Position numbers and translations under genes: made by a program. DNA of 43,655 bases from a phage. Of the stretch, positions 69 to 43,645 are shown in pieces; position 1 is the stretch's first letter; the number at the start of each line of letters is the position of its first letter. Where the stretch lies: NCBI GenBank assembly GCA_029093185.1, contig GCA_029093185.1_4348.1. One strand, 5' to 3'. Below the pieces are notes generated by a model. That model made no database searches and was not told where the DNA came from. It saw only the letters and a program-made list of their open reading frames with translations.

Positions 69-2249
69 CTACTTGGCGTATCTGTACATTTCGCTACCTT
101 CTGCTACAAGAGGGAACCCCTCCGCCCACTCCGGTAATTCGCACATCAACCGCTCAAGCTCTGCAACATTGTATTCTGGCGTATCTGGTGTTTCGCAGAT
201 AATTTCGTCGTGTACGTGAAGCACAATAGGATAGCCGTTTGCTTCAACGTTCAGCAGTGCATTGGCCAGCAAATCACGGCACAGCGCCTGAGTACAGTTT
301 TCCACGAGTTTACCAGAGTAGGTGTACTGGAAGCCCCACTGACGGGTTAACTGGTTCTCCCCCTGGTACTTGATGCGTACGTTAGTAGACACTTTTCCAT
401 CTTCGTCTGTTTCTTTCGACACGCTTAACCCGACGCCCGGATAAGACATAACGCGACCCGACGGCAACGTCATGCGCAACCACCAGCCGGCGACTTTGTT
501 GCCGTTGTTGTCTGTCTCTACGTTGCGCGAAAACTTAACCCCCCTAGGCCCCGCGGTGAACTCTTTACCTGGATTGCGGATAGCGGCCATAGCTGCGTCT
601 TCAATATCTCGCCAGAAAGCTACTGTTTCAGGGTGTGACTCTCGCCACATACGCTTGATAGCGTCACAGGTACGCCACACTTTCTTATCAAGAATATACG
701 ATGGTCGGTCATCCTTCTCCCCGGGTCGCGGCGGTCGCTTGGCTTCCTGAATACGTGCCCATTCATAGCCGCGTGCAGTAGCCGCCCAGATGTGGTCCGG
801 GAAAGTACCGTCCATTGTTTTTGACATATCAACAAGGTCAAGTCCGAGGTTCTTAGCAAACTGAACGAAAGCGCCAACACCACCAGCGTAGCCGAGGCCA
901 AGCTCGCAGGCTTTACCAATCTGGCGCAAGTCTTTGCGTTCCTTCTTAATGTAATCCGGCTCCATGCCGAACATCTTACCCGCGGTTACACAGTAAATGT
1001 CCAGCCCGGCGCGGAACGTATCTAGCGCGGTTTCTTCGCCTGCCAGCCACGCAAGCCCCCGACCTTCAACGTTAGAGTAATCGGCGACGACAAACTTTTT
1101 TCCGGCTTCCGGGATAATGCAGCTACGCACCGTCGATGCCGTTAGCTTAGCGACATCGAAACGGCGATGCGCGCGGCCCTTAAGTAACGCTGAAATACCT
1201 TTATCCAGTTCATCATCGTGATAGTACCCACGCGCGAGGTTCTGCGGCTGAAATCCTTTACCGGCAAATCGTAATGTACGCTTGGCTCCGCCGTACTGAA
1301 TGCAACCACGACGGCGGTCGTCCGACGAGCGCCCTAACAGCAGCGGGTTATATTTCGTTGACGCTGTGGACGCGGCCCCGAGGCGCATTTCGATAATCGT
1401 GCGTGCGTCGTCCGGTAAATCATCATCCGCCAACAGGTCGTTAAGCGTAGACTTCTGCGCGTTGTGGATGCGGTGCGCTGGTGCAAGTTCACGCAGAATC
1501 GGCAGGAAGTCTTTACCAGTAAGCGAGCCGCCGTATTTGCGCTGTGCTTCTTCCTGTAGCTGGGCCTTGTGTTTTTCCACGGCTTCAATCGCGGCTTCCG
1601 CCAGCGTCACATCAACCTTAAACCCACGGTCGTTAATCAACTGGTCCAGTTCCAGTACACGGTCTTCGAACTCGGAGTTACCCCAACGCGGCAGCTTATG
1701 GAAGACTTCACGCATCGCAGTGATGTCGCTCACGGCGTACCTGATGAACATCACCCACTCGTCAGGGTGAGTTTCTGCGGTGTAGCGGCGGATTTTGTAG
1801 TTCTTCGGCGTCGGTTTAGAGAAACGCTTAATCAGAGCCTTGCCGCGTTTATCTTTCGCGTTGTCTGCAGACACGCCCAGCACTTCGCACAGCGCATCAA
1901 GAGAACCCGGCAGCGCGTGACGGAACGCCCAAATCATAGTATCAATGGTGTTACTTACCGGAATATCAAAGTCCCAGCAGTGTTTCATGATTAGGCGATC
2001 GAAAAGTCCACCGTTGTGCCACACCATCTTGATGCGGCTGTTGGGCTTAACAAGGCGGCGCAAGGCGCGGTGTAAATCCCCCGGCATGTCGCTGCCGTCG
2101 GTGCAATCCCATACCCGCACAGGTTCGTCGTCAAAAGCATATGTACAGATAAGCACTTCGGTTGACGGGTGTTCGGCGTAAGCGTAAGAACCGACTTTCT
2201 TCAAATCGGCTTCGGAGAATGTTTCAAAGTCCAGGTATAAGTAGCTCAT
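69..2249 (-). CDS. Family A DNA polymerase with 3'-5' exonuclease domain
   Basis: ORF 69..2303; N-terminal Exo I motif (YLYLDFETFS), C-terminal polymerase motif C (VLHVHDEII). Start placed at the internal ATG 2249 (M19) because it has an AAGGA Shine-Dalgarno; the longest ORF would start at 2303. Confidence 0.85.
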   Translation of the reverse strand: MSYLYLDFETFSEADLKKVGSYAYAEHPSTEVLICTYAFDDEPVRVWDCTDGSDMPGDLHRALRRLVKPNSRIKMVWHNGGLFDRLIMKHCWDFDIPVSNTIDTMIWAFRHALPGSLDALCEVLGVSADNAKDKRGKALIKRFSKPTPKNYKIRRYTAETHPDEWVMFIRYAVSDITAMREVFHKLPRWGNSEFEDRVLELDQLINDRGFKVDVTLAEAAIEAVEKHKAQLQEEAQRKYGGSLTGKDFLPILRELAPAHRIHNAQKSTLNDLLADDDLPDDARTIIEMRLGAASTASTKYNPLLLGRSSDDRRRGCIQYGGAKRTLRFAGKGFQPQNLARGYYHDDELDKGISALLKGRAHRRFDVAKLTASTVRSCIIPEAGKKFVVADYSNVEGRGLAWLAGEETALDTFRAGLDIYCVTAGKMFGMEPDYIKKERKDLRQIGKACELGLGYAGGVGAFVQFAKNLGLDLVDMSKTMDGTFPDHIWAATARGYEWARIQEAKRPPRPGEKDDRPSYILDKKVWRTCDAIKRMWRESHPETVAFWRDIEDAAMAAIRNPGKEFTAGPRGVKFSRNVETDNNGNKVAGWWLRMTLPSGRVMSYPGVGLSVSKETDEDGKVSTNVRIKYQGENQLTRQWGFQYTYSGKLVENCTQALCRDLLANALLNVEANGYPIVLHVHDEIICETPDTPEYNVAELERLMCELPEWAEGFPLVAEGSEMYRYAK

Positions 2250-2412
2250 TTCTTTTTCCTTAAATCCAGTGCCTTCGTTTCGCTTAATCTTATTTTCATA
2301 CAATCACGGCAAATCCACACATGCCTGTACCCGGCCCGGTGCCCATCCGCGTACCACGGAAGCGGTTTCATATAGCGATAAACGTGCTTACAGAAAAACA
2401 TTATTTTCGACC

Positions 2413-2460: not shown

Positions 2461-3087
2461 TTAGCGGCGGCGACGTTCGCGGCGCGGTGCTTCATCTTCT
2501 TCGTCGTCTTCCAGGTCATTGACGCTCGCAGCGACTTTAGAACCGCCGAACGCTTTGCCTTCGCCAACGTATTTAATCGCCAGCAGGTTAACGCCGAGGA
2601 CTTTGTATTTCTGGCTGAACCAGATTTCAACGCTTACGTTAGCTAAGCATCCGCTGTAAACCTGTTCACCTTCAATCTGTTCGCCGTCTACGTTGAAGTC
2701 CTGCTCTACCTGAGTCTCACCTTTTTTAGAGGTTACAATCAGCGGCTGTTTCTGTGCCTTCGCTTTGAAGTAGAAGCCTTCCGGGAAGTCTTCAAACGGA
2801 TTGTCGCGCTCGGCAATGTCTTTAATCGCGCATTTATCCATGTGCTTACCTTCACCGTAGTTGGACTTCATCCATTTCTCGGCAGCGGCTGCGCCTAACG
2901 CTTCTTCAACTACAGCGTAAACGGTGTCGTAGAGTGCATCGATTTGAGCATGGTCAGACGGCAGGATAATAGTCGCGCTGTACTGGCCTTTAGTGATTGA
3001 GCCATCATCGTTTTCACGGTCTTTTTCGCGTTCGAATACGTTAACCCAAGCAGTGTTTACTTTACGCAGATTCAGTTTAATACCCAT
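2461..3087 (-). CDS. DUF2815-like phage ssDNA-binding protein
   Basis: 208 aa; acidic tail DLEDDEEDE then RRERRRR; sits between a Cas4-like nuclease and PolA, the position this family usually occupies. Confidence 0.5.
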   Translation of the reverse strand: MGIKLNLRKVNTAWVNVFEREKDRENDDGSITKGQYSATIILPSDHAQIDALYDTVYAVVEEALGAAAAEKWMKSNYGEGKHMDKCAIKDIAERDNPFEDFPEGFYFKAKAQKQPLIVTSKKGETQVEQDFNVDGEQIEGEQVYSGCLANVSVEIWFSQKYKVLGVNLLAIKYVGEGKAFGGSKVAASVNDLEDDEEDEAPRRERRRR

Positions 3088-3146
3088 CGTGATTTCTCGC
3101 TTTTAAGTTTCGTTTACTCCGGGAAGCTGCCCGGTCAGTGATTAGA

Positions 3147-3175
3147 ACTATAATAGCTAACTATTCAGGTGTCAA
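3147..3175 (-). promoter_or_regulatory. Sigma70-type promoter with embedded operator palindrome
   Basis: Minus strand TTGACA (rc of 3170-3175), 17-nt spacer, TATAGT (rc of 3147-3152); spacer contains TAATAG-CTAA-CTATTC. Confidence 0.6.
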
Positions 3176-3364
3176 ATAAAATTTCGCAATACGGACTATG
3201 TTCTCGAAATCATTCATATCAACGGGTTCGAATTCATCCTCCACATGGTTGTATCGCACCATCGTGCCGTTCAGGAACGTAAACGATTCCGAATGGATAT
3301 AACCGCCCCAGCGCCATATCATCACAAAATCTTTATCTGTGGGCATTTCATTTACTTGAATCAT
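3161..3364 (-). CDS. Hypothetical protein
   Basis: 67-aa ORF; its ATG overlaps the upstream stop (ATGA) and is preceded by GAGGAGGA. Confidence 0.5.
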   Translation of the reverse strand: MIQVNEMPTDKDFVMIWRWGGYIHSESFTFLNGTMVRYNHVEDEFEPVDMNDFENIVRIAKFYLTPE

Positions 3365-4602
3365 TCTAAATCCTCCTCTGTTACCCTATTCCACTCAGGA
3401 CGTTTGTCGTCTGCCGTTGCAACACATGGTGCGCCTGGCTTACGGGTAATGAAGTCTTTCAGTTCTTCTTCCGGTATGACTTTAACCGCTTCGGTTGGCG
3501 TCATGAGCACTTGCTTCATTAGCGCTATGCCATACTTGCCAGCCACTTTCTCTGCGTCTTTCCACGCACGATTGCCCGGGCGGCCCTCAACCAGCTTGTA
3601 CCCCGGCACTTTCTTACCGGAATGCAACGCGGTGGCCATCGCTTTCTCAACCTTGTCGATGTGCTGGCGCAACAACGGCAACTTCTCATATTCAGCTACG
3701 AGTTGCTCCGGCGTAAGTTCCAGCGCAAAGTCGTCCTCCAGTTCTTCCGCCAGTACAGAGTTAACGGTTTTTGTACGCGCGGCACACTGTTCAGAGAACC
3801 GACACCACTGACAACCATCTACAGACGGCTTGAAATCAGATGCTTTCAGGTTCTTCTTACCGCGGAAATACGCATCAAGCGCCAACAGTGCACGTTTCTT
3901 GGCAAACTTAGCGAACAGTTCCAGACCTTCAACCGAGATGTCCCACTCCGACGCACCGCCAGCGTACGGCTGGAAGATGACCAGGCGCACTACTGTGATG
4001 TTATAACGTCTCTTGAGTCGGCGATAAACACCGAGAGCGTAAAGCATAAGCTGCTTGTTTTCTTTCGCTTCGACGCGATGCCGCCCGGTTTTCAGGTCGC
4101 CGATAATGAGCATGTGCTCGTCGGTGTTTGCCAGTTCCTGTACAGCAACGAGGTCAGCGGTTCCGAACGTCTCAACGCCTTCATACCCCGGATGCAATAC
4201 CTCAGTAAGATTGACACGCATTTCCAGCTTGGCGTAAGTCGCTACGTCTATAATCGCTTTGCAGTAGTCGGTGTACTTGCGCACCTGCTCAATCATGTCC
4301 GCCGTAATCAGTACCGCGCCTTTCATCGGGCTGATTAGCGCCTTAATCTGACCTTTACCCTCATCCAGCACGTAAGCACCGACTTCACGTTCTAACGGCA
4401 GCGCAGTGCCACGGATATGAGCGTTGAGATGGACCTCGGCTATGGTGTGACACGCGGTCCCCGTAACAGCAGCTTTACCGGACGTGTTAGGAATATCTTT
4501 TTCACAGGCCAGTGATGCACTGCACGCCAGCCACTTTTTGGCGCCAGACGGCGACAGTAAGGCGTGCACATCGTTATTGCCACCGCGTTCTTTTAGAATC
4601 AT
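3361..4602 (-). CDS. Cas4/RecB-like PD-(D/E)xK exonuclease (DUF2800-like) with probable 4Fe-4S cysteines
   Basis: 413 aa; RecB-family motifs IIGDLKTG and QLMLYALG; N-terminal Cys pair (WLACSASLAC) plus C-terminal CQWCRFSEQC; C-terminus ends VTEEDLE. Confidence 0.7.
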   Translation of the reverse strand: MILKERGGNNDVHALLSPSGAKKWLACSASLACEKDIPNTSGKAAVTGTACHTIAEVHLNAHIRGTALPLEREVGAYVLDEGKGQIKALISPMKGAVLITADMIEQVRKYTDYCKAIIDVATYAKLEMRVNLTEVLHPGYEGVETFGTADLVAVQELANTDEHMLIIGDLKTGRHRVEAKENKQLMLYALGVYRRLKRRYNITVVRLVIFQPYAGGASEWDISVEGLELFAKFAKKRALLALDAYFRGKKNLKASDFKPSVDGCQWCRFSEQCAARTKTVNSVLAEELEDDFALELTPEQLVAEYEKLPLLRQHIDKVEKAMATALHSGKKVPGYKLVEGRPGNRAWKDAEKVAGKYGIALMKQVLMTPTEAVKVIPEEELKDFITRKPGAPCVATADDKRPEWNRVTEEDLE

Positions 4603-4961
4603 CGTAAACTCTCCAAATACAAGTTTAATGCCTGTAGCTGTTCTTCTGTGGGAATGAAAGAATCATCGCGACGTAAGTCGCTTAACTGTTGCAGCATTCC
4701 TGCGAACTTACGTCTTGCGTCAACAGCGACAATGTGATGCTTTTCACTTTTATATATTAAGGTTTTCGGGTAATCCTCAATCCTGCCAGACGATTTATTC
4801 ACGCGGAGTGCGCGATCTTCATGCGCAATGTGTATGTACTTTTTGCCGTTTTGTAGCACAGTAGCTACACCGCTGTTCTTTCTGCGGTCGCCGACGGTGT
4901 AAACTTTGTCGCCGCTGCGCAAATTAAGCCACCATTTATCAGTCATACCCTGTTCTCCCAC
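4599..4961 (-). CDS. Hypothetical protein
   Basis: 120-aa ORF, 4-bp overlap with the downstream gene; no recognisable motif. Confidence 0.5.
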   Translation of the reverse strand: MGEQGMTDKWWLNLRSGDKVYTVGDRRKNSGVATVLQNGKKYIHIAHEDRALRVNKSSGRIEDYPKTLIYKSEKHHIVAVDARRKFAGMLQQLSDLRRDDSFIPTEEQLQALNLYLESLR

Positions 4962-21414: not shown

Positions 21415-22116
21415 ATGAATCGTTTTTTACGTTATCCGTTCCAGGAAGAAGCTGGAGCAGAAGATAAAGCTGGTGGCGGTGACGCTCCTAAAATGTTCAC
21501 CGCTGAAGAAGTTCAGGCGCTGATTGAGAAAGAAGTTGCCGGGCTTAAGGCTAATCAGGAAGCATTGTTGGCGGAGAAGAAAGAAGCCGCTCGCAAAGCA
21601 AAAGAGGCCGAAGAAGAACGGCAGCGCGCGCACCAGGAGGCGTTAAAAGTCGCTGGTAAGATGGATGAGTTCGAAAAGACGATTCGTAGCCAGTACGACC
21701 CTGTGTTAGCCGAGAAAGACGGTCGCATCTCCAGAATGGCAGAGCGTATCCTCGGCAGCGAACGTAAAGCGGTGCTAGGCTCTTTCGCGGGTGACTTTAT
21801 TACCCCAGAAGCAGTGGACATTCTTGCGCCGTTCGTTAAGACTGAGTTCGAAGGCGATGATGTGGTTACTAAGTTTGTTGGTGCAGACGGTAACGTAATC
21901 ACGACTGACCCGGAACAGTTCCGCAAATACCTGCGCGAACACAAGGCGTTTTCGCATTTGATCAAAGCAAATGCAGCTTCCGGCGGCGGGGCTTCCGGTA
22001 GCAAAGGCGGCGGGGCCGCACCAGCGTTTAAAGACATGAGTGAAGCAGAGCGTTTAGCCCTGTATAAATCGAACCCTGCCGAATTTGAACGGCAACTTAA
22101 AGCCCTGAGGAAATAA
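21415..22116 (+). CDS. Scaffolding protein
   Basis: Ala/Glu/Lys-rich coiled-coil sequence directly upstream of the major capsid gene; ATG 21415 with AGGGGA Shine-Dalgarno (ORF track starts at TTG 21361). Confidence 0.55.
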   Translation: MNRFLRYPFQEEAGAEDKAGGGDAPKMFTAEEVQALIEKEVAGLKANQEALLAEKKEAARKAKEAEEERQRAHQEALKVAGKMDEFEKTIRSQYDPVLAEKDGRISRMAERILGSERKAVLGSFAGDFITPEAVDILAPFVKTEFEGDDVVTKFVGADGNVITTDPEQFRKYLREHKAFSHLIKANAASGGGASGSKGGGAAPAFKDMSEAERLALYKSNPAEFERQLKALRK

Positions 22117-22118
22117 TA

Positions 22119-23168
22119 ATGGCAATTACCACTATCGGCGATATCGTAACTGGCAACATCCCGGTCCTGGCGTCTTATATGACCGAGGACCCGGTAGAAA
22201 AAACCGCGTTCTTCCAGTCTGGTATTCTGACCCCGACCCCGTACGCTGCCGAGATTGCCCGCGGCCCGTCCAACGTCGCTAATATTCCTTTCTGGAAAGC
22301 GATTGATACCTCTATCGAGCCGAACTACTCGAACGACGTATACCAGGACATCGCCACCCCGCGTAACGTGCAGACCGGCGAGATGATGGCGCGCGTTGCG
22401 TACCTGAACGAAGGTTTCGGTCAGGCGGATTTGACCGTTGATCTGACCAGCCAGAACCCGCTGCAATCCGTAGCGTCACGTCTGGATAACTTCTGGCAGC
22501 GTCAGGCACAACGCCGTCTGATTGCTACCGCGCTCGGGCTGTACAATGACAACGTAGCCGCTACCGACGCATACCACGAGCAGAATGACATGGTAATCGA
22601 CGTGTCTGCTACTCTGGGCTTCGATGCGGGCGCGTTCATCGACGCTACCCAGACTATGGGCGATGCTCTGATGGGCAACGGCGGTGAAGTGCTGGGGGCT
22701 ATCGCGATGCATAGCTTCGTTTATGCGCAGGCACGTAAGCAGCAGCTTATCGACTTCATCCGTGACGCGGACAACAACACCATGTTCGCCACCTACCAGG
22801 GCTACCGCGTGATTGTTGACGACAGCATGACCGTAGTCGGCACTGGCCCGACCCGTAAGTTCATCTCCATCATCTTCGGCAACGGCGCTATCGGTTACGG
22901 TGAAGGTTCTCCGTCCAACCCGCTGGAATACGAGCGCGAAGCGTCCCGCGGCAACGGCGGCGGCGTTGAAACCCTGTGGACCCGTAAGACCTGGTTGCTA
23001 CATCCGTTTGGTTACAGCTTCACCAGTGCAGTAATCACTGGCAACGGCACCGAGACTACCCCGCGCTCTGCTTCCTGGCAGGACCTGGCGAACGCCTCCA
23101 ACTGGAACCGTGTGGTTGACCGCAAGCACGTACCGATTGCCTTCCTGGTAACTGGTGTCGGTGCTTAA
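22119..23168 (+). CDS. Major capsid protein
   Basis: 349 aa after the scaffold, followed by a strong terminator. Confidence 0.7.
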   Translation: MAITTIGDIVTGNIPVLASYMTEDPVEKTAFFQSGILTPTPYAAEIARGPSNVANIPFWKAIDTSIEPNYSNDVYQDIATPRNVQTGEMMARVAYLNEGFGQADLTVDLTSQNPLQSVASRLDNFWQRQAQRRLIATALGLYNDNVAATDAYHEQNDMVIDVSATLGFDAGAFIDATQTMGDALMGNGGEVLGAIAMHSFVYAQARKQQLIDFIRDADNNTMFATYQGYRVIVDDSMTVVGTGPTRKFISIIFGNGAIGYGEGSPSNPLEYEREASRGNGGGVETLWTRKTWLLHPFGYSFTSAVITGNGTETTPRSASWQDLANASNWNRVVDRKHVPIAFLVTGVGA

Positions 23169-26636: not shown

Positions 26637-27805
26637 ATATGGCTACAACTCCTTTTAAGGGCGCGAATACCGCGCAATTCTATGTGGCGGAAGTGACCCC
26701 GGGTGTAACACCGACTAACCCGGTCTGGTCACCATTACGTAACACGGGCGGTGTTCCTGCCATTACCCGTGACACACTGACCTCCAACGAACTCGACGGC
26801 AGCCGTGAAACTACATCCATCCGCACCGGTAACAAACAGGTTAGCGGTGAATACGCAATTGAGCTTAGCTCTAAAAGCCAGGATGACTGGTTGGCAGGTG
26901 CTTTAGGCTCTACGTGGCAATCCGGTGTTTCTCTGCCAGGACTATCGATCACCGTCGCGCCCGCGGGCAAGACGTTCACACGCGCTACCGGCAGTTTTAT
27001 CACTGACGGAGTTGGGGTAGGCGACCTGATTGCGTTTACCGACTTAACAGGCGATAACGCAAAACCATTTATTGTTACCGCAGTAACGGCTACCGTTGTT
27101 ACTGGTGCAGGCATCCAACACACCCTGACCACCGAGACAAAAACTAGTAAGGCTAAAACTGGCGACACGCTGGAAACCGGTAACACATGTAAGACGTTCT
27201 CTATTCTCACCTGGTACAAAGGACAGTGCGGCGGGACTGACGCATACACACTAACCAAAGGTGTGGAAGTTTCCGGTTTCACCGTTGAGCAGGCCGTTAA
27301 CGCGATGGTTACAGGTAGCTTCCCGTTCATCGGGCGCAGCCAGGAGATTCTTACTACGCCGCCGTCTGGTTCCAACTTCTCCTCTGTCACGTTTGGTGAT
27401 GAGCCATTCTCCTCGGTTGACGTTTCTGTGTTTGACGGCTATACGCCGTTGCGTTGCGACAGCCTGACCATCACCAACGACAACAGCGCATCCGCGCAGT
27501 TCGAACTCGGCAACACTAACGTAGCGTTTGTAGAACGTAGCCGCGCGGCTAACACCTTCTCCATCTCCGGCAAGCTGTATGACATGGCGATGATTCAGAA
27601 GTTTATCAACGAGCAGCAGGTAGAGATTAACTCTATTCTGGCGGGGGTAAACGGGGCTATGTCTTTCAGTTTGAAACGTGCGGAGCTTACGGCAGTTACC
27701 CCAGAGATTGGCGGACCTGAGTCAATCACTCAGTCCATTGAAGGCCAGGCTACTGGCAACCAGTACCAGTCGTCTATTGTTATTCAGCGTATCACCTACG
27801 CATAA
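26633..27805 (+). CDS. Major tail protein
   Basis: 390 aa, Thr/Gly/Ser-rich, followed by a terminator. Confidence 0.6.
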   Translation: MNMATTPFKGANTAQFYVAEVTPGVTPTNPVWSPLRNTGGVPAITRDTLTSNELDGSRETTSIRTGNKQVSGEYAIELSSKSQDDWLAGALGSTWQSGVSLPGLSITVAPAGKTFTRATGSFITDGVGVGDLIAFTDLTGDNAKPFIVTAVTATVVTGAGIQHTLTTETKTSKAKTGDTLETGNTCKTFSILTWYKGQCGGTDAYTLTKGVEVSGFTVEQAVNAMVTGSFPFIGRSQEILTTPPSGSNFSSVTFGDEPFSSVDVSVFDGYTPLRCDSLTITNDNSASAQFELGNTNVAFVERSRAANTFSISGKLYDMAMIQKFINEQQVEINSILAGVNGAMSFSLKRAELTAVTPEIGGPESITQSIEGQATGNQYQSSIVIQRITYA

Positions 27806-27835: not shown

Positions 27836-28065
27836 TACTCATCAATGTTACTCCTGTACTCCCGTAACTTTTCCAGACTTTCAATTGCTTCCGCTAAGTC
27901 GGTTCCGGTGTCCTTGTGTCCACGTAAACCCATGCACAATAGCTTCTTCAATGCGTGCTGTAACGCCGGGTCGCGGATGTCGAAAGCGCGGAGCACATCA
28001 TAAACGTCTACTGTCATAGTGCTGCCGTGAGTATTTGTCATTGTGCGGTTGTATTTTGAAGTCAT
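27835..28065 (-). CDS. Hypothetical small protein (third gene of the antisense moron operon)
   Basis: 76 aa; ATGA overlap with the phosphoesterase gene. Confidence 0.55.
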   Translation of the reverse strand: MTSKYNRTMTNTHGSTMTVDVYDVLRAFDIRDPALQHALKKLLCMGLRGHKDTGTDLAEAIESLEKLREYRSNIDE

Positions 28066-29192
28066 CCCAGCATCTCCGGTGAAATAGTTAAACGTGCGAC
28101 CTCGCCATATTCGGCGCTATAAGTAATTACATTTGCACTGCGGCCTGACATCCACCCGCCGCGGGAGGCATAGGCGTCTTTAGCCGCTAAGGTGCGGTGT
28201 TGCTCAACAATCATGTTACGGCTTTCTACAATCTTCTGGTGGTGCAGGTGGCCTACGTGGGCGTAGCTATAGACACTCTCACCGAACGCTTTGCGGAATT
28301 TGGCAATCATAACCGGTTCGATAGCATCGAATCGCGCCTTATGCCCGTGGTGAAAGAACAACGTCGTTTTTCCGTGTTGCACCATCTTGTAAACATCCGG
28401 CGACGTATCGACAATCACTCGGCTGTCGTTCGAATATAAAACTGTGAACATTTCAGCCAGCCATACAGAGCCTACAGGGTCATGGTTCCCCTGTACGATA
28501 AGCAAGCGAACATTTTTATGTTTAACCAGTGCCATATCTACAACACAGCGTACCATACGAATCATGTAGCGGACGAGTTTCTGGTAGCGAGTGTCTGCGT
28601 CCAACACGTGACGCGACTCAGGTGTAACGGCATCCAGACTATCGAAGTGCGCGAAATCACCCAGCAGGTTAATAACTCCTGTTCCTGCATCCGGTGCTTT
28701 CTGAAACGCCGCGTCGAACCAACGAGAGAACAGGTCTTCCGCAATCTTTATATCCCAGTCGTCGCCGCTCTCGTCGGCCCAGGCAAGCATACCGAGATGG
28801 AAATCAGATACCGTGTAAAGATTGAGTAGCTTGTCGTCGCGTTTGGCTCGAGTCGCTTTAGCCGGCGCAACTGGCGTAATCTCTGACTTCATGCCTTCAA
28901 TCACGGCTTTCATCAACTCGACCTGACGTTCAGCGTCGGTGTCTGTCTTAACCCATTGCAACTTAGTATTGCCGAACTCGTCTACCAGAGACGACGTTCC
29001 TTTAATCTTGTAGCCGTCTGGCACAAGGTGGCTAACGTCACGCCCGTGGCCTACACCTTTCTTAGCCAGCTTCGCTTTACGGATACGAATAACTCGGTCT
29101 GAGATGCCGTATTTACGGGCGATGTCTACATTCTTCATCCCGGCGTTCAATTCTTCCTGTAACTGTTCGTCGGTTATTTTCTTCTGGGCCAT
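28062..29192 (-). CDS. HTH-fused calcineurin-like metallophosphoesterase
   Basis: 376 aa; N-terminal HTH (VDIARKYGISDRVIRIRKAKL); phosphoesterase motifs VSDFHLG (DxH), LGDFAHFD (GDxxD), VQGNHDP (GNHD), HHGH and GHLHH. Confidence 0.7.
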   Translation of the reverse strand: MAQKKITDEQLQEELNAGMKNVDIARKYGISDRVIRIRKAKLAKKGVGHGRDVSHLVPDGYKIKGTSSLVDEFGNTKLQWVKTDTDAERQVELMKAVIEGMKSEITPVAPAKATRAKRDDKLLNLYTVSDFHLGMLAWADESGDDWDIKIAEDLFSRWFDAAFQKAPDAGTGVINLLGDFAHFDSLDAVTPESRHVLDADTRYQKLVRYMIRMVRCVVDMALVKHKNVRLLIVQGNHDPVGSVWLAEMFTVLYSNDSRVIVDTSPDVYKMVQHGKTTLFFHHGHKARFDAIEPVMIAKFRKAFGESVYSYAHVGHLHHQKIVESRNMIVEQHRTLAAKDAYASRGGWMSGRSANVITYSAEYGEVARLTISPEMLG

Positions 29193-39868: not shown

Positions 39869-39892
39869 AAGGCCCCAAACGGGGCCTTTTCT
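39869..39892. terminator. Bidirectional rho-independent terminator
   Basis: AAGGCCCC-AAAC-GGGGCCTT followed by TTTTCT; ends both the late plus-strand operon and the convergent minus-strand operon. Confidence 0.65.
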
Positions 39893-40030
39893 CTACTCTT
39901 CTGATAACTTCTCCAGCACAAACGCCAGTTGCGCATTAGCGGCGTCTCTTTGCTGCCGTAGTCGTAGAACCTCTTCTTCCAGTTCCTTGATACGTTTTTG
40001 CAATGCTGGAATAGGAGCTATGATGTTCAT
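39893..40030 (-). CDS. Small coiled-coil protein (45 aa)
   Basis: Read manually (MNIIAPIPALQKRIKELEEEVLRLRQQRDAANAQLAFVLEKLSEE); ATGA overlap with the SNF2 gene stop. Confidence 0.35.
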   Translation of the reverse strand: MNIIAPIPALQKRIKELEEEVLRLRQQRDAANAQLAFVLEKLSEE

Positions 40031-41451
40031 TTCTTACCTCGTCTCTTCATGTAATTAAGCAACTCTTCCTGGACCGATTTCTTCTCGTCCGTACGCGCCG
40101 CAACAACCTCATCCAGCGTGTCTTTAGCAACGATGTGATAGAGGAACACCGGGCGCTCGTGGCCCGCCTGTTTCTGACGGACCGGGCCTATACGCTCGAC
40201 AACCTGCAAATAGTGCTCAAGGTTCCAGCCTTGTGAGATGAATGCCAGATGATGTCCGCCGTCTTGTAAATTCAAACCATGGCCCGCTGACGCAGGATGT
40301 ACGCATAAGATTTCTACTTCACCGCGGTTCCACGCTTCCATCTGCTTATTACCCCTGGCACCTTTGGCAAAGGCCTGTGCTTGTGGGAATCGCTTAAGGA
40401 TGCGCTCCAGTTCGTGCTTGAACTGATAGGCCACCAGTAACGGTGCCCCCTGTAACTCCTCAACAATGGACTCGAGCGCATCAAGTTTCGTGTCGTGCAC
40501 TTTCTCCCATTCTTTGGTTGATTCGCCATCTGGCCCCGATACATACACGGCACCGGAGGCAATCTGTAGGCACTTCGACGTCTTCGCCGCAGCGTTAGCC
40601 GCTTCAACTTCTCCGCTTTCCAGTTCCGCGAATAACTTCTCCTCCATATCGATGTACGCCTGACGTGCTTTCTTCGGCAGGTCGATTTCAACCGGCACAA
40701 TAATCGGCGCTTCACACCCGAACCACTCGGCGGCGTCAATCGTGAGACTAATGTCCTTCATCTTCTGGTGAATTTCATTATCCGCACCCGGGCGTGCGTG
40801 GTATTCACGGGCCATCGCAGATTTCCCTTTCTGTACCGAGTTAAACCAGCGGTCGGTGAATGCTGTGTACGATGACCCCAGGCGCTCGCCTGCGTCGATA
40901 AACCAGTTCTGCCCCCACAAGTCCTTGAGGCCGTTTGGTGACGGCGTGCCAGTCAGGTTAATGAAACGCTTAACTTTGCCAAATGCCACTTTACTAAGCG
41001 CCTTTGCCCTCTTGCTGCCGCCTGAACGGCTGCGGAATGACTTCAGTTTCGTGCTTTCATCGGCGACGATAACCGTAAAAGGCCAGTCGTCTTTGCCGTA
41101 GTAGTCAATAAGCCACTCGATAACTTCGTAGTTCGTGCACACCACGTTAGCATCTGACTCCAGCGCCGCGATGCGGCGCTTCTCCAAACCAGTCGCATCG
41201 ACGACACGCAGACACGGGAAACCCCACTTAGTTTGTTCAGCAGGCCATGTGCCGGACGCAACACGCAACGGGGCGAGGATTAACACACGGTCCTCTTCCG
41301 TAAGCTTCCCGTTGCGGAACAAGCGGTTTAGCACCCACATAGTGGAGGAGGTTTTACCCCCTCCCATGCCGCACCAGATATTACAGCGTGGATGCTGCAG
41401 CATGAACGAAGTCATGAGCTTTTGGTACTCACGCCTTTGAAACTTACTCAT
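40027..41451 (-). CDS. SNF2-family ATPase/helicase
   Basis: 474 aa; Walker A GMGGGKTS, DExx box VIVADES, LTGTPSPN motif. Confidence 0.7.
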   Translation of the reverse strand: MSKFQRREYQKLMTSFMLQHPRCNIWCGMGGGKTSSTMWVLNRLFRNGKLTEEDRVLILAPLRVASGTWPAEQTKWGFPCLRVVDATGLEKRRIAALESDANVVCTNYEVIEWLIDYYGKDDWPFTVIVADESTKLKSFRSRSGGSKRAKALSKVAFGKVKRFINLTGTPSPNGLKDLWGQNWFIDAGERLGSSYTAFTDRWFNSVQKGKSAMAREYHARPGADNEIHQKMKDISLTIDAAEWFGCEAPIIVPVEIDLPKKARQAYIDMEEKLFAELESGEVEAANAAAKTSKCLQIASGAVYVSGPDGESTKEWEKVHDTKLDALESIVEELQGAPLLVAYQFKHELERILKRFPQAQAFAKGARGNKQMEAWNRGEVEILCVHPASAGHGLNLQDGGHHLAFISQGWNLEHYLQVVERIGPVRQKQAGHERPVFLYHIVAKDTLDEVVAARTDEKKSVQEELLNYMKRRGKK

Positions 41452-42241
41452 TTACTGCCCCCATGAACGCCTTTATAAATTCAGCGGCTACTTGCGGGAC
41501 GATGGCATTGCCGTAACCGCGCAATCGTCCCACTCTTGCGGATACCCCATGAGTTGCCTCGCAAAATCCGCCTGGTATGACTCTAGTTTCCTTATCTGCT
41601 CCATGGTTGGGTTTCCATGAATCCCATAAACATGAAGCCACATCTGGCGATAAAGAGTATCGTTCCTGAATTTTCCGTCCTTTCTGTAAAATGTCTTGCT
41701 GAGATCCCCGTAATCCTTCCATCCTCGCGCCGTTGGTGTCGCCCATCCTCGCGCCAAAGATGATTCTTTTCCTTTCCTGTGGAGAGCCGACGCTGCAAGC
41801 TGGCAATACTGACGCCCCGCAGGCGTAGCCTTTGTCTTCCAGGTTAAGGAATACAAAATCGAGCCAGTGCTTCCCAATTGCTGCTGCAACCTGCTCTCCA
41901 AACAGCAATTCAGGCTTGCACTCTCTGATGAGCCTGAGAAATGCTGGGGCAAGGTGTCGATCGTCGTCAAATCCGAGAGACTTACCGGCAACGCTAAACG
42001 GCTGGCAAGGTGGTGATCCTGTCCAGAGTCGAGTGCTTTCTGGTATTCCTGCCAGCTGGAGTGCAAGGGGCCACCCTCCGATTCCGGCAAAGAAGTGACA
42101 CTGTGTAAATCCTTCCAGGTCTGAAGGGGTGACTTCGGTGATTGATCGTTCATCGACATATCCGTAAGGAATTAGTTTATTGTTAATTAATTCACGCAGC
42201 CACGCGGCTGCGCCTTTATCCCATTCGTTGTAATAGTTCAT
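41444..42241 (-). CDS. Orphan DNA cytosine-5 methyltransferase
   Basis: 265 aa; motif I FFAGIGGW, motif IV SPPCQPFS, FGEQV (ENV-like), C-terminal GNAIVPQVA; no adjacent restriction endonuclease. Confidence 0.75.
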   Translation of the reverse strand: MNYYNEWDKGAAAWLRELINNKLIPYGYVDERSITEVTPSDLEGFTQCHFFAGIGGWPLALQLAGIPESTRLWTGSPPCQPFSVAGKSLGFDDDRHLAPAFLRLIRECKPELLFGEQVAAAIGKHWLDFVFLNLEDKGYACGASVLPACSVGSPQERKRIIFGARMGDTNGARMEGLRGSQQDILQKGRKIQERYSLSPDVASCLWDSWKPNHGADKETRVIPGGFCEATHGVSARVGRLRGYGNAIVPQVAAEFIKAFMGAVNE

Positions 42242-42429
42242 TTCGCCACCAGAACTAACTCTTTACGCCCGAACGCCGTAACGTTACCGGTTACGTCTTC
42301 AATAACCAGTTTACCGTTCGACTCGACGAACACCGTATCAACGGCAACAGGACGACGGGTCTTAACGTTGAAAATCATGTCGCCTGGTACGATGTCACGT
42401 GCTGGTTTGCGGTCATATTCGTGTTTCAT
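42238..42429 (-). CDS. Hypothetical protein
   Basis: 63-aa ORF, first gene downstream of the promoter at 42463-42491. Confidence 0.5.
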   Translation of the reverse strand: MKHEYDRKPARDIVPGDMIFNVKTRRPVAVDTVFVESNGKLVIEDVTGNVTAFGRKELVLVAK

Positions 42430-42459
42430 TTCTCAATTCCTTATATTGTTGGTGTAGGA

Positions 42460-42747
42460 CTAACTATAATAGTTCGCTATTAGGTCGTCAACCTGTTTAA
42501 ACGAACCAACGACAAAAACATTTGCACCACGTTTACGCATCCGCTCGTGCTCTCGTATCTGGTGCGGGTCTGGCTTCGTGTTTTCGTCTTTCTTAACCTC
42601 GACGAACCAGACGATGCCGCCGGGGAGAATTACCAGCAGGTCGGGGGCGCCGGAGCGCCCCTCATAAGACAGCTTACGAACGAGGCCACCAATGGCCTCG
42701 AATCGCTCTTTTGCGTATTTCTGGATGCACCCCTCAGGCGTACTCAT
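42460..42747 (-). CDS. VRR-NUC domain nuclease
   Basis: 95 aa; PD-(D/E)xK-type pattern GAPDLLVIL...VEVKK. Confidence 0.6.
   Translation of the reverse strand: MSTPEGCIQKYAKERFEAIGGLVRKLSYEGRSGAPDLLVILPGGIVWFVEVKKDENTKPDPHQIREHERMRKRGANVFVVGSFKQVDDLIANYYS
42463..42491 (-). promoter_or_regulatory. Sigma70-type promoter with embedded operator palindrome
   Basis: Minus strand TTGACG (rc of 42486-42491), 17 nt, TATAGT (rc of 42463-42468); TAATAG-TTCG-CTATTA. Confidence 0.55.
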
Positions 42748-42828
42748 CTACGCACCCCTCTCGTTTCGTGTGCTCAATCCCGCAGCGTGGACAGATTCGG
42801 CAGTCTTCTTCATAAAACCAGTAAATTT

Positions 42829-42960
42829 TCATTCCAGCACCCACAGATAAATTGCGATGAATATACCCAATACGGCAACCATCATGCCGTACTGACCCTC
42901 ATGACAGTAAACACCGGCGGCGAATCCAGCCAGTACCGCGATAATCAGTTTACTTGGCAT
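42829..42960 (-). CDS. Small hydrophobic peptide (43 aa)
   Basis: Read manually (MPSKLIIAVLAGFAAGVYCHEGQYGMMVAVLGIFIAIYLWVLE). Confidence 0.25.
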   Translation of the reverse strand: MPSKLIIAVLAGFAAGVYCHEGQYGMMVAVLGIFIAIYLWVLE

Positions 42961-43645
42961 CTCTACATTCTCCTTCAGGCCACCTATTAGGAAAAGACGG
43001 TATATGTGAAACTTCTCTCGCCGCTTTTATTCTTTTAATGGTGGGACCTATCTCCGTAACCATTTCAATGAATGTAAACCGGTGTCCTCTGGTAAGATTA
43101 CATGTCTGACAACAAGAAACGCAGTTAGATACTATGTGCCCGCTTGTATTATCTATGCGGTCTACCCCGACTTTTGTAGTGCTTCCGCAATAATGGCATG
43201 GCTGTGATATTAGTTTAATAACGCTTTCCAGTGTTAAATCGCAGATAAGCCCTTTTCCTGAATCTGCTCTTTTGTATCCTAACAAAAGCGCGTACGCCCG
43301 CGTCCTTTGGTCCTTATTCACCAGTTCCCTGCGTTGCTTGTTGAGACACTCCCGGCAATCTTTCCTGATATGAGAGCCATTACTTTTATTTCCTTTCCTG
43401 AAGTTTTCCTCTGTTAAAGGTTTTACCTCCCCACACTTTCTGCATTTAACAGGCTTCCCAGTGAAAACATACCAAGGGCTTTCTCGTCTGGATTTACCTT
43501 GTAATTTAAGTTTTTCGTCATACTTTTCCTTCCTGTTAGCATTTACACACTCTTTACACCAGCGTTGCAGCCCGAGGCGCGTTGACTTTGAAAAATACTC
43601 TGTAGTCGCCGGTTTATCTTCGCCGCATCTTGAACACTTTTTCAT
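42950..43645 (-). CDS. Zinc-ribbon / HNH-like endonuclease
   Basis: 231 aa; two CxxC...CxxC repeats (CSRCGEDK...CKEC; CRKCGEVK...CREC) and an HNH-like C-terminus CHYCG...DRIDN...H...N...CCQTCN. Confidence 0.45.
   Translation of the reverse strand: MKKCSRCGEDKPATTEYFSKSTRLGLQRWCKECVNANRKEKYDEKLKLQGKSRRESPWYVFTGKPVKCRKCGEVKPLTEENFRKGNKSNGSHIRKDCRECLNKQRRELVNKDQRTRAYALLLGYKRADSGKGLICDLTLESVIKLISQPCHYCGSTTKVGVDRIDNTSGHIVSNCVSCCQTCNLTRGHRFTFIEMVTEIGPTIKRIKAAREVSHIPSFPNRWPEGECRDAK

Follow-up and report, generated by a model that had tools for sequence, protein, structure and literature searches.

A nested arrangement, in which one subunit of a C5-methyltransferase is encoded wholly inside the gene of the other, has so far been proven for one bacterial enzyme, M.EcoHK31I (YGGCCR), the heterodimeric C5-methyltransferase of an Escherichia coli type II restriction-modification (RM) system (Lee, Kam and Shaw, 1995; PMC3404938, PMC2836561). 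In the published descriptions, the beta chain of M.EcoHK31I is read in another frame of the alpha gene and both chains are required. Motifs I-VIII and X are found on alpha and motif IX on beta, whose first 42 residues can be dispensed with (PMC2836561, PMC3404938). Here we describe a locus of seemingly similar architecture in a 43,655-nucleotide stretch of phage DNA (GenBank assembly GCA_029093185.1, contig GCA_029093185.1_4348.1), which we refer to as the window. The locus is a methyltransferase gene on the minus strand (positions 41444-42241), whose +1 frame holds a second open reading frame (ORF) of 223 residues. Both ORFs are conserved and free of stops, and the segments in which each is selected complement one another.

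Two further enzymes are useful for comparison. M.HhaI (PDB 1MHT and others) is monomeric, and M.AquI resembles the arrangement proposed here in being a C5-methyltransferase naturally split into two polypeptides that have to assemble. The M.AquI split is linear, alpha carrying motifs I-VIII and one half of the enzyme's variable region, and beta the rest together with motifs IX-X, whereas in the window motif X stays on the catalytic chain. The window derives from a Kagunavirus-like E. coli siphophage. The region in which the locus lies matches 501 phage records, for the most part Guernseyvirinae siphophages of Salmonella, Escherichia and Klebsiella, the top match being Escherichia phage SonjaBuckley_Bas74 (Bas74; 93% identity, 91% coverage).

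Two overlapping frames in the methyltransferase gene

The annotated frame of the locus (frame A, 265 residues) was recognized as the catalytic chain of a C5-methyltransferase from alignments to M.HhaI, TIGR00675 and DruM2 and from its pattern of selection. The Pfam match (PF00145, DNA_methylase) reaches 78 bits, where 22 is the cut-off, and TIGR00675 scores 63.2 bits, under its cut-off of 100.65. The motifs follow one another in the order II (YYNEWD, residues 3-8), III (SITEV), I (FFAGIGG, residues 50-56), IV (PPCQPFS), VI (GEQV) and VIII (PQERKR). An unconstrained linker (about residues 166-203) comes next, and motif X (GNAIVPQV, residues 244-251) is found further downstream.

In the alignment to M.HhaI, residues 36-65 of frame A pair with HhaI 3-32 (motif I) and residues 75-167 with HhaI 76-171 (motifs IV-VIII, E 3e-15), and the II-III region of M.HhaI (residues 33-68) falls in a 36-residue gap. 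The frame-A N-terminus, YYNEWDKGAA...SITEV, matches HhaI 37-46 (YSNEWDKYAQ) and the motif III region. Because motifs II and III match N-terminal to motif I, and because the TIGR00675 and DruM2 profiles begin to align at profile positions 25-33, past motif I, the alignments indicate a permuted order, II-III-I-IV-VI-VIII...X. This permutation appears to be non-circular, with II-III (residues 3-37) placed ahead of I, and motif IV follows the helix next to motif I at a distance of only about 8 residues. It would also explain why Pfam covers only residues 67-169. Frame A shares with M.HhaI motifs IV (PCQ), VI, VIII (QxRxR) and X (GNxV) and the FxGxG S-adenosylmethionine (AdoMet) loop. It differs from M.HhaI in having II-III before I, in reading EQV for ENV in motif VI (the Q is invariant in the family), and in missing the target-recognition domain (TRD) and motif IX. 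The canonical order of motifs I-X in one chain, including a TRD and motif IX, is therefore not found in frame A.

A first-pass annotation of the window, made from the sequence alone, had described the gene as a C5-methyltransferase with no partner endonuclease. The family assignment stands. The picture of a simple single-chain enzyme does not, since the gene is dual-coding and frame A is without a constrained target-recognition region and motif IX. The orphan status is borne out: the gene is flanked by a 63-residue ORF and an SNF2 gene, no cognate endonuclease gene of the kind that defines type II RM systems is adjacent, and the complete 81-gene annotation of Bas74, the closest relative, contains no restriction endonuclease at all.

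Frame B (41488-42159, minus strand), which the first-pass annotation had overlooked, is nested in frame A. Its predicted product is made up of a disordered leader (residues 1-78), a conserved core (GSILYSLTWKTKATPAGR), a single 'W(P/A)TP' cassette and a motif-IX-like end, LMGYPQEW. In an AlphaFold2 (AF2) model, residues 1-78 are disordered, and residues 79-125 and 150-217 are structured. Over the nucleotides coding frame-A motifs IV-VIII, frame B matches phrog_1008 ('DNA methyltransferase', E 1.3e-20). Homologs are abundant. A word-indexed search returned 309 of them, from about 30% identity upward at near-full coverage, and an exhaustive profile search with a limit of E<=1e-3 returned 27,561 representative clusters, a number that falls to 8,236 when the limit is set at E<=1e-30. 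The homologs share the sequence GSxLYxLTWKxxATPAGR, at least one WPTPxxxD cassette and the C-terminal QLNPxxSRWLMGFPxEWDxCAV. Both frames are open end to end in distant settings, for instance in a Mu-like phage (330 residues in A, 293 in B), a P2/186-like prophage (268 and 218) and another phage (362 and 357).

Openness of the second frame was quantified in 78 loci, whose frame-A homologs show 42-71% identity. In 72 of these loci, more than 80% of the gene is open in the +1 frame (median 89%), and in the +2 frame the longest open run is about 17% and 8-30 stops are encountered. As a null test, each gene was subjected to 300 synonymous-codon shuffles, in which the frame-A protein and codon usage were kept. 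The window gene has 227 open +1 codons, a figure reached by none of its shuffles (mean 74, maximum 135), and the observed run is above all 300 shuffles in 45 of 70 genes.

Selection was analysed in a codon alignment of 70 non-identical genes by scoring variability at each codon position. Position 3 is most variable in frame-A residues 1-120, 151-165, 204-218 and 234-263, as expected where frame A is selected. In residues 166-203 and 219-233, position 1, which is position 3 of frame B, is most variable, and frame B is selected. Positions 1 and 3 are equal in residues 121-150, where both frames are selected. Pairwise amino-acid identities agree with this entropy pattern regardless of the guiding frame. 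For instance, identity in residues 30-64 is 0.76 in frame A and 0.35-0.36 in frame B, in residues 166-203 it is 0.17-0.18 in A and 0.24-0.30 in B, and in residues 219-233 it is 0.55-0.56 in A and 0.60-0.62 in B. From codon-position variability and pairwise identities, frame A is thus constrained over the catalytic motifs and motif X, and frame B over its core, the variable cassette region and the C-terminus. Roughly the first 95 frame-B codons, like the middle of frame A, are kept without stops and are otherwise free to vary. We conclude with high confidence that frame B is a real, selected coding frame.

The position of frame-B start codons is also conserved. In about 90% of loci, the first frame-B ATG falls within frame-A residues 26-40, a Shine-Dalgarno (SD)-like motif precedes a candidate frame-B start in 67 of 70 loci, and frame B stops a median of 9 codons before the frame-A stop. 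In the window, the candidate starts are ATG 42159 and ATG 42153, which follow a frame-B stop, with GGA found 7 nt upstream of 42153.

One locus is especially informative. In a metagenome contig (ERZ28617863 scaffold_95, positions 2913-4688; locus L089), frame B contains an HNH domain (phrog_1035, E 1.9e-26), which sits between the frame-B leader and core; in frame A, the insert falls between motifs VI and VII/VIII. Frame A of this locus (591 residues) matches phrog_363 end to end and is open through about 190 extra codons. The alignments mark this locus as a domain insertion into a dual-coding gene. Because frame A stays open across the frame-B HNH insert, both frames must be read through.

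The nested ORF has rarely been recorded. The GenBank records of K1G, K1ind1 and K1ind2 annotate it as a 'putative Mte8-like protein' (for instance, GU196277.1 26630-27322; locus L088, 401-1093), a label for which a literature search gave no meaning, and it is represented in PHROGs by phrog_1008; to this extent, it was already known. Bas74, Bas75 and XY2 annotate frame A only, and in Bas75 even frame A is labelled hypothetical. In a large protein collection, at least 7,997 frame-A clusters are named DNA cytosine methyltransferase, and nearly all frame-B entries are unnamed. The literature search retrieved no paper linking phage C5-methylases to a nested gene and none interpreting frame B. Judged from the homologs collected here, dual coding appears to be conserved across thousands of phage genes and is almost never annotated.

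A proposed two-chain methyltransferase and its alternatives

We propose that the locus encodes two polypeptides from the same DNA. The alpha chain (frame A) would supply the AdoMet-binding and catalytic large domain, joined to motif X by a linker of unconstrained sequence. The beta chain (frame B) would start internally, about 27 codons downstream and in the +1 frame. It would supply a dispensable-looking disordered leader, the conserved core, an exchangeable 'WPTP' cassette that probably recognizes the target, and the motif-IX-like end. By analogy with M.EcoHK31I, alpha and beta would assemble into an active C5-methyltransferase acting on phage DNA, and it is our judgement that the two chains together probably form the enzyme. 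Translation of beta, heterodimer formation, activity, a target motif and a narrow anti-restriction role are what we infer.

Because the architecture is the same, we class the locus as one that may work like M.EcoHK31I, and as a putative, very widespread member of the rare nested alpha/beta C5-methyltransferases. The two have in common a nested second ORF in another frame and a catalytic alpha chain that includes motif X, and would also share internal starts and, if the weak alignment described below holds, motif IX on beta. The dispensable N-terminus of beta spans 42 residues in M.EcoHK31I, and its counterpart in the window locus would be a disordered, unconstrained leader of about 78 residues. 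They also differ in several respects. The window enzyme is an orphan, whereas M.EcoHK31I has an endonuclease partner. The TRD was placed in alpha by the authors of the M.EcoHK31I work, whereas selection in the window locus puts the variable region in beta. Finally, the alpha chain of the window locus appears permuted (II-III-I), unlike that described for M.EcoHK31I.

The assignment of the frame-B C-terminus to motif IX deserves separate mention. The sole alignment of frame B to M.HhaI pairs residues 191-211 with HhaI 270-290, which is motif IX (KTRKLHPRECARVMGYPDSYK), and the match falls at the expected place. This end is near-invariant in the family (L.P....R.LMG[FY]P..W), the residues concerned being P197, L203, M204, G205, P207 and W210.

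Exchange of the variable region is apparent within the genus, where three methylase alleles occur, all of which keep frame B. The window allele is identical in Bas75 and XY2, and its frame B is 99.5% identical to that of the Skatevirus Bas77. The Bas74-type allele is 60% identical to that of the window in frame A and 39% in frame B, and the K1G-type allele 59% and 43%, respectively. The region of the methylase gene that is without a nucleotide match to Bas74 (41551-41874, minus strand) corresponds to the frame-B core and variable region. Outside it, the block 39893-43645 lacks a Bas74 match only at 42736-42748 (13 nt). The allele shared with Bas77 indicates, on the basis of sequence identity, that cassettes or whole alleles have been exchanged across genera. 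Frame-B cassettes recur in unrelated phages, and three or four are found in tandem in some (for instance, the frame-B proteins P0010 and P0295). The multispecific C5-methyltransferases of Bacillus phages SPR, phi3T and rho11s carry tandem, short, interchangeable target-recognising modules between motifs VIII and IX. The tandem WPTP cassettes of frame B recall these modules, a likeness of described organization with no TRD sequence similarity established. The Bacillus phage enzymes are single chains read in one frame, whereas the window locus uses two frames.

Several observations weigh against the two-chain interpretation. In statistical terms, the motif IX alignment is weak (E 0.031, probability 1.6%). 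Neither Pfam, NCBIfam nor PADLOC gives a match for frame B, its profile finds none among PDB sequences, and a Foldseek search of its AF2 model against the PDB returned none at E<=0.001. AF2 yielded no usable model of frame A, with its apparently permuted fold (predicted local distance difference test, pLDDT, 36), probably owing to a shallow alignment, in which all sequences were at least 67% identical. The SD-like motif ahead of the frame-B start in the window is weak, consisting of GGA only. The likeness to M.EcoHK31I is one of architecture as published, not of aligned sequence. A tblastn search of plasmids for M.EcoHK31I gave 8 matches, all under genes annotated as DNA cytosine methyltransferase, and was uninformative. 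Finally, the frame-B ORFs P0241 and P0383 of the Pantoea ananatis chromosome are continued in frame by a Dam N6-adenine methyltransferase domain (PF05869, E 4e-53), and the frame-B ORF P0272 by a DUF2800/PD-(D/E)xK nuclease (E 5e-50). These may be read-through ORFs or true fusions. As proof of frame-B translation they were downgraded, since NCBI annotates just the 189-residue Dam part in Pantoea.

The lack of matches to curated families and solved structures and the weakness of the motif IX similarity would suit a frame A that is by itself a complete methyltransferase, overprinted by an unrelated frame-B gene with a function in, for example, anti-defence or regulation, and viral overprinted genes do often encode novel accessory proteins. 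We nevertheless consider this improbable. Between motifs VIII and X, frame A is short, length-variable and unconstrained, and hence offers neither a selected target-recognition region nor motif IX. It is over exactly this interval that frame B is constrained, its end showing the motif IX pattern, and the proven M.EcoHK31I has the same layout. A chance origin, with the nested ORF a non-functional by-product of amino-acid and codon composition, might be argued from the synonymous shuffles, whose open runs in the +1 frame are still fairly long (averaging about 39% of the gene), and from the fact that most annotation pipelines ignore the ORF. This explanation retains almost no credibility. It is effectively refuted by the openness of the frame and its excess over the shuffles set against a chance-like +2 frame, by purifying selection in the phase of frame B, with translations conserved to about 30% identity over their full length, and by the HNH domain that frame B carries in locus L089.

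The order in which selection acts along the gene (A, B, A) is also that of one canonical chain (I-VIII, TRD, IX, X), which could be produced by two programmed frameshifts, from A to B after motif VIII and from B to A before motif X. Frameshifting, however, needs neither an open frame B along the roughly 95 codons that lie upstream of its core nor a frame A that is open through the cassettes and the 190-codon insert of L089, and both are observed. Frame B, moreover, has start codons of its own at a conserved position. No conserved slippery heptamers or homopolymer runs occur where selection switches frame in the 70 loci; at the B-to-A switch, a canonical slippery heptamer is present in 3/70 and an A/T run of at least 7 in 3/70. 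With both ORFs open end to end and slippery sites not conserved, double programmed frameshifting was rejected as very unlikely. The pattern of starts and SD-like motifs, the L089 insert and the absence of slippery sites lead us to favour two independently initiated proteins.

As the biological role of the methylase, the first-pass annotation suggested self-protection against host restriction. This is plausible, and we give an anti-restriction role an even chance. Evidence to the contrary comes from the BASEL study, in which Kagunavirus isolates, including Bas75, are reported as highly sensitive to the RM systems tested (PMC11990801). Since the methylase of Bas75 is identical to that of the window, any protection would have to be narrow. 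The sensitivity of methylase carriers (PMC11990801) and the position of the gene within a replication/recombination operon, beside SNF2 and a resolvase, would accord with an active methylase whose role is not classical restriction evasion, for instance one as a mark on replicated DNA that serves packaging or timing, or one against some other defence. Cassette swapping among alleles of one genus is, however, the pattern expected of an arms race over target specificity, and only a handful of RM systems were tested. We regard such an alternative role as rather unlikely.

Genes surrounding the methyltransferase locus

Apart from the methylase locus, the block 39893-43645 is ordinary and already annotated in relatives. 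All six ORFs reported by the first-pass annotation were recovered on the minus strand where it had placed them, and its family assignments (SNF2, C5-methyltransferase and VRR-NUC, with HNH-like as a putative fourth) hold in Pfam, PHROGs and PDB matches. Overlaps that suggest the translational coupling it had noted are also seen, at more than one junction: the 45-residue ORF begins with an ATG that overlaps the SNF2 stop codon (ATGA), the stop of the 63-residue ORF overlaps the methylase ATG in the same way, and the methylase and SNF2 genes overlap by 8 nt. Besides frame B, it had missed two small ORFs and a terminator hairpin, described below.

The VRR-NUC nuclease (95 residues; 42460-42747, minus strand; phrog_93, phrog_5702) is about 88% identical to PDB 4QBN over 92 residues (residues 3-94, E 2.6e-52), although its Pfam score of 19.4 is under the cut-off of 23.8. 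The active-site residues PD...EVK...Q form a PD-(D/E)xK site, and D...EVK...Q are kept in the 4QBN alignment. The protein crystallised in 4QBN is saNUC, from Salmonella enteritidis typing phage 3 (SETP3) (PMC4103454). Pennell et al. found a resemblance to Holliday junction resolvases in saNUC and in two further stand-alone VRR-NUC proteins, which form dimers in solution and cut four-way junctions (PMC4103454). Both saNUC and the window protein are stand-alone VRR-NUC domains in the same gene neighbourhood of a Guernseyvirinae phage, and apart from the fact that activity was shown in vitro for the ortholog and not for the window protein, there is no notable difference between them. By sequence, the latter is an apparent ortholog of a Holliday-junction-cleaving enzyme and would resolve branched and four-way DNA, as shown for saNUC. 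The first-pass remark that the mechanism of the SNF2 and VRR-NUC pairing in phages is not well defined is therefore outdated as far as the nuclease is concerned.

The SNF2-family ATPase (474 residues; 40027-41451, minus strand) consists of a bare two-lobe core. It scores 45.6 bits with SNF2-rel_dom (cut-off 24.9; E 6.3e-12) and 19.2 with Helicase_C, under the cut-off of 23.5, and matches phrog_62 at 5e-166. The motifs GMGGGKT, DEST, TGTP and QVVERIGPVRQ are present, and residues 28-450 align to the Sulfolobus SWI2/SNF2 core (PDB 1Z63). The two-lobe core and all helicase-like motifs are shared with 1Z63 and with the eukaryotic Snf2 and Ino80 motors; unlike the Sulfolobus and eukaryotic SNF2 motors, the window protein is without accessory or targeting domains. 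As a double-stranded DNA translocase core, it could remodel forks or branches upstream of the resolvase. Membership of a defence module was considered and rejected. For DISARM, Zorya and Dpd, the similarity to ZorD, DpdE and DrmD is generic and far below threshold (DrmD, 31.6 bits against a cut-off of 950). PADLOC gave only generic SNF2 and methyltransferase matches, and no partner genes of a DISARM-like or other system are found in the Bas74 annotation.

The HNH-type (endonuclease VII-like) protein (231 residues; 42950-43645, minus strand) has its match in PHROGs (phrog_1035, 'endonuclease VII', E 2.3e-29) and none in Pfam. It carries two N-terminal CxxC...CxxC zinc-ribbon repeats, and its CHYCG...DRIDN...CCQTCN segment aligns weakly to the HNH nuclease 9K32 (E 0.05) and to PacI. 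The first-pass annotation counted this gene as a member of the block, a view that its distribution does not support: copies of at least 99% identity are found only in Bas72, Bas73, Bas74 and KMB35 (4 of 50,697 phage records), and the gene is missing from Bas75, even though the Bas75 methylase is identical to that of the window. As a sporadic insertion, it separates the DNA polymerase gene from a 43-residue ORF, which in Bas75 directly abuts the polymerase gene. The gene behaves like that of a free-standing homing-type endonuclease, and not like a fixed component of a module, and its product may be a mobile endonuclease of this type. As its presence varies independently of the methylase, it was rejected as the restriction partner of the latter. 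The next-best homologs (49% identity) occur in unrelated siphophages (Gluttony, Envy, SO-1, JLBYU60 and others), again beside a VRR-NUC/resolvase gene, which suggests a preferred insertion neighbourhood.

The remaining ORFs of the block are small. They comprise a 45-residue coiled-coil-like protein (39893-40030; phrog_5915), the 63-residue conserved hypothetical protein (42238-42429; phrog_4879), and, between VRR-NUC and HNH, a conserved 36-residue ORF (42734-42844; phrog_38225) and the 43-residue ORF, which is hydrophobic and conserved (42829-42960; phrog_10404), all on the minus strand. An intrinsic-terminator-like hairpin (AAGGCCCCGTTTGGGGCCTT, followed by a T-rich tail; 39869-39888, minus strand), with an 8-bp stem that includes 6 GC pairs, marks the operon end, in the 28-nt gap facing the convergent tailspike gene.

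The final 400 nt of the window, followed by its initial 400 nt, are collinear with Bas74 (96.4% over 800 nt). The window is therefore a complete, circularly permuted genome, with an arbitrary start in the spacer that separates the HNH gene from that of the DNA polymerase. The block forms the promoter-distal end of the long replication/recombination operon on the minus strand, which runs across the window ends from the DNA polymerase gene (69-2303, minus strand), which lies directly upstream. The upstream part of the operon extends from 8624 down to 69 and encodes a primase-helicase, an exonuclease, a Gp2.5-like annealing protein and the DNA polymerase. These are followed by the HNH gene where present, the small ORFs, VRR-NUC, the 63-residue ORF, the methylase, SNF2, the 45-residue ORF and the terminator.

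Elsewhere in the window, long antisense ORFs lie opposite structural and exonuclease genes at 21555-22466 (minus strand, 303 residues), 26680-27390 (minus strand, 236 residues) and 3622-4338 (plus strand, 238 residues). They may reflect a common antisense-frame effect. A short minus-strand island (28062-29192 and neighbours) interrupts the plus-strand structural module; its Bas74 counterpart holds small ORFs in addition to the genes for a DNA repair exonuclease and a superinfection immunity protein.

Significance of the nested arrangement

The locus offers a clean, deeply conserved same-strand overlap of about 220 codons with interleaved selection, and as such is a model for the evolution of dual coding. 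If alpha and beta are both needed for activity, thousands of phage and prophage genes named 'DNA cytosine methyltransferase' describe half an enzyme. Assignment of methylomes to genes, cloning and the design of knock-outs would then fail or mislead when the nested frame is ignored.

A more far-reaching reading, which we put forward tentatively and hold to be possible rather than probable, is that nested beta chains are the specificity subunits of two-chain phage C5-methyltransferases whose class is very large and has been overlooked. The WPTP cassettes would be interchangeable recognition modules, sometimes tandem and multispecific, through which alpha reads as an unconstrained linker. If so, phages could change their methylation specificity by exchanging cassettes within one dual-coding gene, leaving the catalytic subunit as it is, and these genes would be among the most widespread long same-strand overlapping gene pairs in prokaryotic viruses. 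The cassette structure may also provide a natural platform for re-targeting C5 methylation.

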